Positions 9,412 through 12,387 of a stretch of DNA of 32,000 nucleotides are shown in pieces. Made by a program: the position numbers and the translations under genes. The notes beneath the pieces were generated by a model, which had not been told where the DNA came from, searched no databases, and saw only the letters and a program-made list of their open reading frames with translations. Location of the stretch: positions 150,001 to 182,000 of the forward strand of contig NZ_JHXR01000002.1 of the NCBI RefSeq assembly GCF_000621645.1, given 5' to 3'. Source of the DNA: Vibrio cholerae ATCC 14035 (GTDB lineage Bacteria; Pseudomonadota; Gammaproteobacteria; Enterobacterales; Vibrionaceae). Position 1 is the stretch's first letter. Each line of letters starts with the position of its first letter.

Positions 9412-10593
9412 TTATTTCGTCATCTGCTTTTCAGCATCAGCCAGAGCGGCATCCACGGTTTGACGACCATCAACGATGTTGATGATGGCGTTTTTCGCAG
9501 AGCTCCAAAACGCGTTCATTTGTGGAATGTTAGGCATAATTTCGCCGTTCATGGCGTTATCCATGGTCGCCGCAATGCGCGCATCCGCATCCAGTTCACG
9601 TTGGAAAGAGTTCAGCGCAACCGCACCTAATGGCTTATCGTTGTTTACCATGCGCAGACCATCGTTAGTCAGCAGATAGTTTTCGATGAATTCCACCGCC
9701 AGATCTTTATTTGGAGAAGCGGTGCTGATACCTGCGGTGAGAACGCCAACGAAAGGTTTTGACGCTTGACCGTTAAATTTAGGCAAAGTGGTCACACCGT
9801 AGTTGATGCCTGATTTCTCGATGTTGCCCCAAGACCATGGACCGTTGATGGTCATCGCGGTATTACCTTGGTTAAAGGCAGACTCAGACACTGAGTAATC
9901 CATATCTGGAGAGATCACGCCTTTATCCACAAGGCCTTTCACGAAGTTCATCGCGTCTTTTACGCCTTTATTGTTGATACCTGCGTCTTTCACATCATAG
10001 CCATCAACACCGTATTTGAATGCGTAACCGCCATCAGCCGCCATCAAAGGCCAAGTGAAGTAAGGCTCTTTCAGGTTCCACATGATGGCCGATTTGCCTT
10101 CTTTCTTCAGTTTGGCATCCAGCTCAGCGACTTCTTCCCAGCTTTTCGGTGGGTTAGGGACAAGGTCTTTGTTATAAATCAGTGATAACGATTCCACCGC
10201 AATTGGATAACCAATGATTTTGCCGTTGTATTTCACTGCATCCCATGCGAAATCTACGATGCCTTCTTGAATTTTTGCAGAAGGTTTGATTTCGACTAAT
10301 AGGCCAGCTTCCGCATAACCGCCAAAACGGTCGTGAGCCCAAAACACAATGTCAGGACCATCACCTGTTGCTGCGGTTTGTGGGAATTTATCTTGTAGCG
10401 CATCAGGATGAGCGACAGTAACTTTGATTCCGGTGTCGGCTTCAAACTTCTTACCGACTTCCGCCAAACCGTTATAGCCTTTATCACCATTGATCCAAAT
10501 AGTGAGTTGTCCTTCTTCAATAGCAGCATGGGCACCAAACGAACCAAGAGCCACCAGAGTGCTCAGCGCGACTGTGCTTAGGGCATTTTTCAT
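9412..10593 (-). CDS. malE: Maltose/maltodextrin-binding periplasmic protein MalE
   Basis: The ATG at 10593 has AAGGA 7 nt upstream. The signal peptide ends in AHA|AIEEGQL. The mature sequence is colinear with E. coli MBP ([20 protein letters not shown]...). Confidence 0.95.
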
Positions 10594-10681
10594 GTTCATA
10601 TCCTTTTCTTTTTGTGTTGTAGGGCTCACCAAGAGGTTTTGCCGTATTTCGCCATTTATGATCAGAAAAAAACGCGTTTAA

Positions 10682-10946
10682 CTCATCCTCCTAACCCCTA
10701 CGCCCTCGATATTATGGCGTATTTTCGTGATCTCTATCGTTTGATGTGAGCGAGCCAAATCACAAAAAACAGGATTGATGTGATCCTACTCAACTTATCC
10801 ACCCTCAATAATTTGAACTGGATCTAACTACGCCTTAGTGCCCCTCCTCCACCTCCTCCTCACCTACTCCCCCTATAAAAAAGCGGAAGAGGAGGATGTA
10901 CGATTTACCTCTTTCACAGAAACTAGCCTCATCCCAGAGAGGATGG
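10682..10946. promoter_or_regulatory. MalT-box cluster and CRP-like site of the divergent malE/malK control region
   Basis: Several matches to the E. coli MalT box GGGGA(T/G)GAGG: GGAGGATGAG (rc of 10682-10691), GGAGGATGTA (10891-10900), GGGATGAGG (rc of 10927-10935) and GAGGATGG (10939-10946). There are also two GGAGGA cores in the minus-strand purine tract (rc of 10841-10873). A CRP-like site, TGTGA-N6-TCAAC, lies at 10779-10794. Confidence 0.5.
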
Positions 10947-11086
10947 TAAGAGCCTTTCCAGTTTACGTGTTGTAACTGGTTCCACCGCCAAGTAGGTTGT
11001 CGATATAAAGTCATGTTTGTGGTGAAAGCGTTACGGGAGAGACATGGCTTTGTGTAGGGGGAAACAACCTACTTTTCGCGGCAGTC

Positions 11087-11130
11087 GGGTGAACGGCTTC
11101 ATAGCCGGAGCGTTCACCCTTTCTTTTCTT
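11087..11130 (+). terminator. Intrinsic terminator inside the malE-malK intergenic region, upstream of malK
   Basis: GGGTGAACG (11087-11095) pairs perfectly with CGTTCACCC (11111-11119), followed by TTTCTTTTCTT. There is no U-tract on the minus strand, so it is plus-strand specific. Confidence 0.7.
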
Positions 11131-11265
11131 ACCCAATAAGGCGGCGCTGCCAACGAAACCACTTGATGTGGTTCACCTTATCCAATTCCTACTGTTATTG
11201 CGTGCACAATAATTCATATAATGAGCCGCGATAACGATTAAAAATCTTGATCGAGGACGAGCTAG

Positions 11266-12387
11266 ATGGCGAGTGTCACGTTAAAAAATGTATGTAAAGC
11301 GTACGGCGATGTGCTGATTTCAAAGAATGTCGACTTAGAGATTCAAGAAGGCGAATTTGTGGTGTTCGTCGGTCCTTCAGGTTGTGGCAAATCCACACTG
11401 CTGCGCTGTATTGCGGGTTTGGAAGACATTACGTCCGGCGACTTGTATATCGGCGAACAGCGCATGAATGATGTCGAACCTTCCAAACGTGGTGTAGGCA
11501 TGGTTTTCCAATCCTACGCACTGTATCCGCACCTCAATCTGTATGACAACATGTCATTTGGTTTAAAACTATCGAAAGCCAACAAGAGCGAGATCAAAAA
11601 GCGCGTTGATCATGCGGCAGAAATTCTACAACTCAGCCATCTTCTGGATCGCCAACCTAAGGCGCTCTCTGGTGGTCAACGGCAACGTGTCGCCATCGGT
11701 CGTACTCTGGTTTCGCAGCCGAATGTGTTTTTGCTGGACGAACCCTTATCGAACCTAGATGCAGCTTTGCGCGTACAGATGCGCTCTGAAATCACTAAAC
11801 TGCAACGTAAACTAGGCTGCACCATGATTTACGTTACCCATGACCAAGTGGAAGCCATGACTATGGCGGACAAAATTGTGGTGTTGGATGCTGGATTCGT
11901 GTCTCAAGTCGGCAAACCACTCGAACTGTATCATTATCCACAAAACCGCTTTGTGGCCGGGTTTATTGGCTCGCCGAAAATGAACTTCATGAGCGTCTTC
12001 ATTGAAGGGGTAGAAAAAGATCGGGTACAGGTCCAGCTTTCTAACGGTACGACCTTCTGGATCCCTGTGGATGGCACTACCGTCACTCGTGGAGAACGCA
12101 TGTCGCTAGGCATTCGTCCTGAGCATCTGGTTGAAGCAGCATATGGTGATGCCAAAATCGAAGGCAAAGTGATGATTGTTGAAAAGTTGGGTAACGAAAC
12201 ACAGGTGTATATGAACCTGAAAGGTTCCGATTCTGATGTGATCTACCGTCAGCCAGACACACTCGATGTCGAAACCGGCGACACACTCACGATTGGCATT
12301 CCAGCGCATCGCTGCCATCTATTCCACAGTGACGGTCGTGCCTGCCGTCGCCTACACCAAGAAAAAGGTGTTGACCTTCCGGCTTAA
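11266..12387 (+). CDS. malK: Maltose/maltodextrin ABC transporter ATPase MalK
   Basis: Walker [10 protein letters not shown], signature LSGGQRQR, Walker [12 protein letters not shown], and a C-terminal regulatory domain. GAGGA SD 9 nt upstream. Confidence 0.97.

Follow-up and report, generated by a model that had tools for sequence, protein, structure and literature searches.

The closest described systems to the element studied here are two small RNAs encoded between malE and malK in Vibrio. Vsr217 of V. tasmaniensis LGP32 was characterised by Luo et al. (mSphere 2021; PMC8265627), who describe an sRNA "generated from the malK 5' UTR" that is conserved in Vibrio and whose transcription from promoter P1 requires both MalT and maltose. 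Abundant and stable, it persists with a half-life of ~7.5 min compared to ~30 s for the malK transcripts, and long vsr217-malK transcripts were detected together with heterogeneous malK 5' ends (PMC8265627). Deletion of the element halved the half-life of the malK mRNA and slowed growth on maltose, a defect that was rescued by malK in trans and not by the sRNA; Vsr217 is needed in cis for full malK expression and stabilises the malK mRNA (PMC8265627). In trans, Vsr217 represses fbp, and an fbp-gfp fusion was repressed in E. coli only with Hfq (PMC8265627).

The V. cholerae homologue, ncRNA586, was named "ctrR" by Pierle et al. (bioRxiv 2023; PMC10370196). Its expression is CRP-dependent, it is co-transcribed with malK, and it affects sugar transporters and aminoglycoside uptake, its trans targets in V. 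cholerae being largely predicted (PMC10370196). Conservation of the CtrR secondary structure has already been reported (RNAalifold, Fig. S2B, PMC10370196) and, to judge from the reference list of that paper, the region had been entered as an ncRNA by Liu 2009 and Krin 2018. Induction by MalT and maltose and Hfq-dependent regulation in trans are experimental for Vsr217 only, and CRP dependence for ctrR.

The structured element upstream of malK corresponds to ctrR

In the 32,000-nucleotide stretch of V. cholerae DNA analysed here (the window), a preliminary description had pointed to a structured, terminator-capped element at 10968-11130 as a candidate maltose-regulated sRNA or attenuator, and had mentioned no named V. 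cholerae sRNA at this position. In fact, ncRNA586/CtrR is there. With a probability of about 0.93, the element covers the 3' four-fifths of ctrR, the V. cholerae Vsr217-family sRNA of the malK 5' leader. All the sequence-testable defining features of the Vsr217/CtrR family are present, including the location in the malE-malK intergenic region, 5' of malK and on the malK strand. The two genes are divergent, malE being on the minus strand and ending at ~10596 and the malK ATG lying at 11266, and the region between them is unusually long (~670 bp).

The position of ctrR follows from published V. cholerae primers and probes, which match the window exactly and place the sRNA gene at 10931-11128 on the plus strand. 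The gene-specific part of cloning primer 4347 begins at 10931 (match 10931-10959) and the reverse complement of cloning primer 4348 terminates at 11128 (match 11104-11128). Probe ML455 matches exactly at 10976-11000. Primer ML466, which introduces G157C/G158C, changes 11087/11088, and its wild-type version matches 11068-11091 at 100%. ML457 and both EMSA primers, the latter mapping to 10617-10636 and 11149-11169, also match at 100% and at the expected places, and the exact matches include 10933-10952. The dRT-PCR primer ML456 (reverse complement CTTTGTGTAGGGGAAACAAC; 11049-11068) has four Gs against the five of the window, which reflects either a misprint or a difference between strains; exact matches were obtained with the remaining oligonucleotides compared, except for the two deliberate base changes of ML466. 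The resulting length is 198 nt, given as "197 bp" by the ctrR authors (PMC10370196), and in V. cholerae both ends rest on the cloning primers and on homology to Vsr217. The features of the locus are as follows.

10749-10764, unstranded: CRP site AGCGAGCCAAATCACA, common to the divergent malE and ctrR-malK promoters (CRP ChIP-seq list)
10890-10899, plus strand: P1 MalT box AGGAGGATGT, with its centre near -36.5 relative to the start of the sRNA (conservation; labelled "P1 (MalT box)" in FIG S2 of PMC8265627)
10919-10924, plus strand: likely P1 -10 element GAAACT, 6 nt 5' of +1 (conservation; position read from the sequence)
10931-11128, plus strand: ctrR (ncRNA586) sRNA gene, Vsr217 homologue, 198 nt (primers 4347/4348, ML455 and ML466; homologous Vsr217 RACE ends)
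10931-10947, plus strand: transcribed 5' end AUCCCAGAGAGGAUGG, a 5' stem-loop in most species (conservation and MFE folds)
10958-10979, plus strand: hairpin 2 (CCAGUU...AACUGG) with a variable loop (cross-species comparison, folds)
10985-11081, plus strand: long composite hairpin (MFE; covariance-model helices 1-4)
11082-11091, plus strand: predicted target-pairing stretch of CtrR (nt 152-161), including G157/G158 (PMC10370196; ML466 mapping)
11087-11130, plus strand: 3' hairpin (11087-11119; covariance-model helices 5-6) with a U-tract at 11120-11130, a probable leaky intrinsic terminator that would also be the 3' end bound by Hfq (covariation, energy, Vsr217 3' end)
11185-11234, plus strand: Rfam malK-II motif (RF03008; 72.7 bits, E = 3e-12)
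11266-12387, plus strand: malK coding sequence (ORF; 98% identical to V. metoecus and V. mimicus MalK)

The hairpin-plus-terminator element is thus the published CtrR/Vsr217, and its recovery is a rediscovery of something already known: the sRNA, its control by MalT and CRP, the read-through into malK and the conserved structure have all been published (Vsr217 in 2021, CtrR in 2023). What the present analysis adds is limited to a revised extent of the gene, a covariance model and comparative data in favour of an intrinsic terminator. Overall, the part of the early interpretation that stood is the sRNA and the read-through. A maltose-regulated sRNA had been proposed, and the homologue Vsr217 is indeed maltose- and MalT-dependent in experiments (PMC8265627); read-through into malK was detected for Vsr217 (PMC8265627) and, with RT-PCR, in V. 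cholerae (PMC10370196). What did not stand is the position of the 5' end, the choice of promoter and the claim of novelty. Reading of the sequence alone nevertheless recovered a real regulatory RNA, whose gene boundaries and promoter are now corrected.

Promoter P1 and the MalT and CRP sites

The preliminary description had placed the 5' end near 10980, as that of a ~150-nt RNA, downstream of an extended -10-like motif and of an "inverted MalT-box pair". We found the start ~50 nt further upstream, at 10931, from the ctrR cloning primer and from the RACE-mapped 5' end of Vsr217 (ATCCAAGAG / ATCCAAGAGTGGATAGTAAGAACCC; FIG S2, PMC8265627), which is homologous to the ctrR 5' end. The coordinates 10968-11130 omit the first 37 nt of ctrR, the RNA is ~198 nt long, and the supposed pair of MalT boxes is its transcribed 5' end, the first 17 nt of the RNA (10931-10947). 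The motif TGTTGTAAC, present at 10968-10976, lies within the transcript, in the variable loop and 3' arm of the conserved hairpin 2.

We aligned 73 Vibrio loci, including the window, anchored at +1. AGGAGGATGT was at least 90% conserved at -41 to -32, and gAAACT was conserved at -12 to -7 (AaAcT at -11 to -7). In E. coli mal promoters, the promoter-proximal MalT site sits at about the same position, -41 to -32. GAAACT is likely the -10 element of P1 and, judging by conservation in the 73 Vibrio loci, the real promoter is P1, made up of the MalT box at 10890-10899 and GAAACT at 10919-10924. As in the rest of the family, P1 is followed by a 5' end at a conserved AUCC(A/C)AGAG. A generic scan for promoters and terminators called neither at the element.

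Upstream of the P1 MalT box, a pyrimidine-rich tract CCCCTCCTCCACCTCCTCCTCACCTACTCCCCC at 10840-10875 holds the conserved CTCCTCC and CTACTCCCCC. Both are MalT-like boxes when read on the malE strand, and both keep a fixed distance from the ctrR +1 in the 73 loci; they are probably common distal MalT sites of the divergent promoters. The site AGCGAGCCAAATCACA is the CRP ChIP-seq site reported for VCA0945<>VCA0946 (PMC6050953), and CRP, which binds this region, was also studied by EMSA on the malE-malK intergenic fragment (PMC10370196). A second CRP-like motif, TGTGATCCTACTCAAC, is found at ~10779-10794.

Secondary structure of the RNA

As read directly from window positions 10500-11500, the sequence features that had been listed for the element are all present where they had been placed. 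The outer stem (AAGTAGGTTGT at 10990-11000, ACAACCTACTT at 11064-11074) is complementary at 11 of 11 positions, and the inner stem (AAAGTCATG at 11007-11015, CATGGCTTT at 11043-11051) has one G-U pair. For 10980-11135, the plus-strand fold reaches -60.2 kcal/mol and is much more stable than those of shuffled sequence (z = -4.49), none of 200 shuffles being as stable; the minus strand of the same segment folds at -45.8 kcal/mol (z = -2.07), and the full 198-nt RNA gave z = -4.07. The fold of the element is more than chance, and the description of the element as structured is confirmed.

Four structural parts follow each other along the RNA. The first ~32 nt are highly conserved, and AUCCA/UGGAU pairing was seen in the MFE folds of the most diverse species shown. 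In hairpin 2, the CCAG...CUGG stem is retained, the loop differing in length and sequence among species. The long composite hairpin consists of a CCGC/GCGG helix, the outer 11-bp helix (10990-11000/11064-11074), an inner helix (11003-11018/11040-11055) and an apical stem, with near-invariant G-rich internal loops at ~11034-11040 and ~11057-11062. In the covariance-model alignment described below, these helices (1-4) are 79-90% paired, and 26 of their 28 pairs vary on both sides. The last part is the 3' hairpin.

We also observed that GUAAGAG (10946-10952) is complementary to UUCUUAC (11126-11132), just beyond the U-tract. The two segments are paired in the MFE folds of most species shown and are both near-invariant across Vibrio, an invariance that leaves no covariation. 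Since the mature sRNA ends at 11128, the full pairing would be formed only in read-through transcripts.

Conservation of the element across Vibrio

We retrieved 80 Vibrio malE-malK loci, in most of which the intergenic region measures ~650-670 bp. With blastn, full-length similarity to the element was found only in V. metoecus, V. mimicus and V. chanodichtyis. An insertion specific to this clade was ruled out by the intergenic lengths, by visual comparison, in which the layout of the orthologous stretch was the same, and by the covariance-model matches: almost every Vibrio has an orthologue, diverged in sequence. When 63 sequences were aligned with MAFFT without guidance, RNAalifold recovered the 3' hairpin only, with compensatory changes at 6 of 8 pairs in an alignment that was not fitted to the structure; the other stems were missed because indels misalign them.

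The preliminary description had suggested a covariance model across Vibrionaceae. We built one from 12 Vibrio species outside the cholerae clade, the window being left out. It matched the window at 10980-11132 on the plus strand (78.3 bits, E = 7e-17), and 76 of the 80 Vibrio loci had exactly one plus-strand copy 5' of malK. The model alignment showed strong structure-preserving covariation: both members vary in 34 of 39 pairs, the covariation score is 0.466 compared to 0.169, and 89.8% of pair cells are paired, compared to 71.4% in the shuffled control and 37-50% with partners displaced by 1-3 columns, counts that lean towards structure in an alignment fitted to its model. The slide control, the 3' hairpin in the MAFFT alignment and independent single-sequence folds all agree with the model structure, the independent MFE folds of diverse species giving the same architecture. 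In addition, G-U cells (339) were far in excess of A-C cells (39), which designates the plus strand as the functional strand.

Several loci depart from this pattern. In Vibrio TH_r3 and MA40-2 (L075:2576-3000, L077:2579-3000), the malE-malK spacer is ~420 bp and has no match to the model; in the first of these, a P1-like GGAGGATGTA...CAAACT promoter lies directly 5' of malK. This arrangement suggests that a module made up of the sRNA and promoter P2 was inserted into, or lost from, an ancestral arrangement in which a MalT promoter preceded malK. In V. anguillarum and V. ordalii, weak minus-strand matches of 28 and 24 bits (L009:2832-2982 and L018:2832-2982, both on the minus strand) cover the spacer from the terminator to malK and are probably an artefact of palindromic sequence.

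The search of E. coli genomes gave no ctrR homologue, in line with the lack of homologues outside the Vibrionaceae reported by the authors. With Rfam 15 at E up to 10, only noise was obtained over 10931-11130, no family covering the sRNA, and 20 orthologous loci had no gathering-level Rfam match except malK-II. A 77-sequence structural alignment and a covariance model now exist for this sRNA family missing from Rfam 15.

The 3' hairpin and the origin of the sRNA 3' end

The stem of the 3' hairpin (GGGTGAACG at 11087-11095, CGTTCACCC at 11111-11119) is complementary at 9 of 9 positions and is followed by TTTCTTTTCTT at 11120-11130. The whole hairpin has 13 pairs and an energy of -19.4 kcal/mol, and 7 of the 9 nt after it are U; across 74 species, the median energy is -18.2 kcal/mol. 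Its GC-rich base (GGGUG...CACCC) is near-invariant and the stem covaries above it. It has the make-up of an intrinsic terminator, a GC-rich stem-loop directly followed by a U-rich tract on the transcribed strand. The U-rich segment CCCTTTCTTTTC ends at 11128 and carries the UUUUC motif found in 74 of 80 sources. A simple terminator scanner, limited to loops of 3-8 nt, called nothing at this hairpin. The likeliest reason is its interrupted stem, with 15 nt between the perfect arms, more than the loop limit allows. We judged this miss to be a limit of the scanner criteria and not an absence of terminator. A transcript end 9 nt past a stem is the textbook position for intrinsic termination. The Vsr217 3' end (GGGTGGG...CCCACCCACTTTTTTC) was the same in all RACE clones, 9 nt past the hairpin (PMC8265627). 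Taken together, these comparative data suggest that the sRNA 3' end arises at a leaky intrinsic terminator, which we consider the more probable origin.

The origin preferred by the Vsr217 authors is different: a ribonuclease would cut the sRNA from a long P1 transcript covering ctrR and malK, the hairpin and U-tract serving only to protect the product and bind Hfq. They reported no terminator, none being predicted by their software, and both the long vsr217-malK transcripts and the heterogeneous malK 5' ends fit such a cut (PMC8265627). Moreover, deletion of the last 13 nt (polyT) lowered Vsr217 100-fold, abolishing the sRNA without altering its precursor or malK levels, so that neither vsr217-malK nor malK mRNA was raised (PMC8265627). 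This result argues against a strong terminator and fits a U-tract that mainly stabilises the sRNA; the unchanged precursor, however, argues equally against the motif as a processing site, as the authors also note (PMC8265627). A covarying GC-rich hairpin with 6-7 U among the 9 nt after it in 62 of 74 species and the single 3' end of all Vsr217 clones likewise speak against cleavage, which we regard as possible and clearly less probable than leaky termination. It is unlikely that the hairpin and U-tract (11087-11130) form a deliberately leaky terminator whose read-through is itself modulated, for instance by Hfq or another factor on the G-rich loops; if this were true, ctrR would not only act in trans as an sRNA but also serve as a checkpoint at which transcription of the maltose transporter is regulated. 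Still more improbable is that the element is mainly an attenuator or riboswitch-like checkpoint acting in cis, its G-rich-loop hairpin sensing a ligand or protein to set read-through into malK. The terminator does lie inside a MalT-driven leader with read-through transcripts, the internal-loop G-runs GGGGGAG and GGGGGAA are near-invariant, and deletion of the element lowers malK mRNA in cis. An attenuator of this kind, also put forward in the preliminary description, found no conserved antiterminator pairing to work with: in the search for duplexes between the terminator 3' arm and upstream sequence, the best alternative partner was no better than in shuffles and inconsistent in position (median z = +0.55, 0 of 77 below -2). 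Nor was there an Rfam riboswitch or leader family match, and in V. tasmaniensis the polyT deletion did not alter malK mRNA, the stability of this mRNA or growth on maltose. Over half of the malK 5' ends lie at P2, downstream of the terminator, and the free RNA has an Hfq-dependent effect in trans on fbp-gfp in E. coli.

Two further readings concern the transcript as a whole. That an independent ~150-nt RNA would start at ~10980 from TGtTGTAAC (10968-10976) is suggested by a resemblance only, agreement at four of the six TATAAT positions and a preceding TG. We consider it highly improbable, since this motif falls in the loop and 3' arm of hairpin 2, a segment variable in length and sequence, the promoter scan found none, the ctrR clone and the Vsr217 RACE 5' end both begin 50 nt upstream, and the conserved MalT box and -10 element are positioned for a +1 at 10931. 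The long, nearly perfect nested palindrome and the unusual length of the intergenic region could also recall an intergenic repeat or mobile element (REP, ERIC or MITE-like), or a structure arisen by chance and without function at the transcript level. The chances of this are negligible: the element is single-copy in the window and syntenic in the 76 loci, one copy per genome, always 5' of malK and on the malK strand, its compensatory changes and G-U bias are strand-specific, and its experimental detection has been published.

With leaky termination as the preferred origin of the 3' end, RNA polymerase would start at A10931 and make the 5' stem-loop, the second hairpin and the long composite hairpin, before meeting the conserved GC-rich hairpin and U-tract at 11087-11130 as a leaky intrinsic terminator. 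Termination would release the 198-nt sRNA with a U-rich 3' tail suited to binding by Hfq, and read-through would give the ctrR-malK mRNA. It is the termination step that differs from the processing model preferred by the Vsr217 authors, and the comparative evidence for a terminator bears on the point left open in their paper, whether the sRNA is made by termination or by processing. A role as a CsrA sponge, considered for the several GGA motifs, was dropped, the Δvsr217 phenotype (Fbp and PpsA up) being opposite to that expected from CsrA release according to what is known of CsrA in E. coli.

The 3' arm of the terminator and its tail are also directly repeated: GTTCACCCTTTC (11112-11123) and GTTCACCTTATC (11171-11182) are 83% identical. 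In RNA that reads through, the 5' arm of the terminator could pair with the second copy, located after the sRNA and before malK-II. The "weak MalT-like box" CCTTATCC (11176-11183) of the preliminary description falls inside this second copy.

The neighbouring malK-II motif and promoter P2

The Rfam malK-II motif is a separate 50-nt hairpin that lies outside the element, no malK-II match falling within it. Its loop holds the TATAAT at 11217-11222, which Luo et al. call promoter P2 (PMC8265627). In addition, the AphA ChIP-seq site reported for V. cholerae malK (GCGTGCACAATAATTCATAT) lies at 11200-11219 (PMC6855506), so that three annotations coincide at 11185-11234: the malK-II hairpin, the P2 -10 and the AphA site. 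Expression of malK is MalT-dependent despite the consensus -10 at P2. A literature search on "malK-II" returned no papers.

Comparison with known systems

CtrR/ncRNA586 occupies the same locus as the element described here, in the malK 5' UTR, with CRP dependence, read-through by RT-PCR and the same sequence save the one G of ML456 (PMC10370196). Its orthologue, Vsr217 of V. tasmaniensis, likewise lies between malE and malK (PMC8265627). The two share the P1 MalT box (GGGAGGATGT in Vsr217), the 5' end ATCC(A/C)AGAG, the G-rich motifs ACGGGGGAGA and GGGGGAA, the 3' hairpin with UUUUUUC and, in independent folds, the same architecture. In contrast, the primary sequences of their stems have diverged, the V. 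atlanticus relative (L071) scoring 41 bits and the window 78 with the same covariance model, and cross-species overexpression does not complement (PMC10370196). The reported trans targets also differ, fbp for Vsr217 compared to manA, malE and lamB for CtrR.

Other systems resemble ctrR in part. RF03008 malK-II lies, like ctrR, in the same leader and on the same strand 5' of malK, 55 nt downstream of the sRNA. The SreA/SreB SAM riboswitches of Listeria and rnTrpL of Sinorhizobium (cited in PMC8265627) are, as ctrR would be, 5'-leader fragments set free by premature termination that act in trans, and, as for ctrR, the sequence that yields them also works in cis on the gene behind it. They differ from it as ligand- or translation-controlled attenuators with alternative structures, neither an antiterminator nor a ligand being evident for ctrR. 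MicX (V. cholerae malG) and MalH (E. coli malG), although derived from 3' UTRs and distinct from ctrR in this respect, are like it sRNAs embedded within operons for maltose transport, with a role in adjusting porins, transporters and carbon use.
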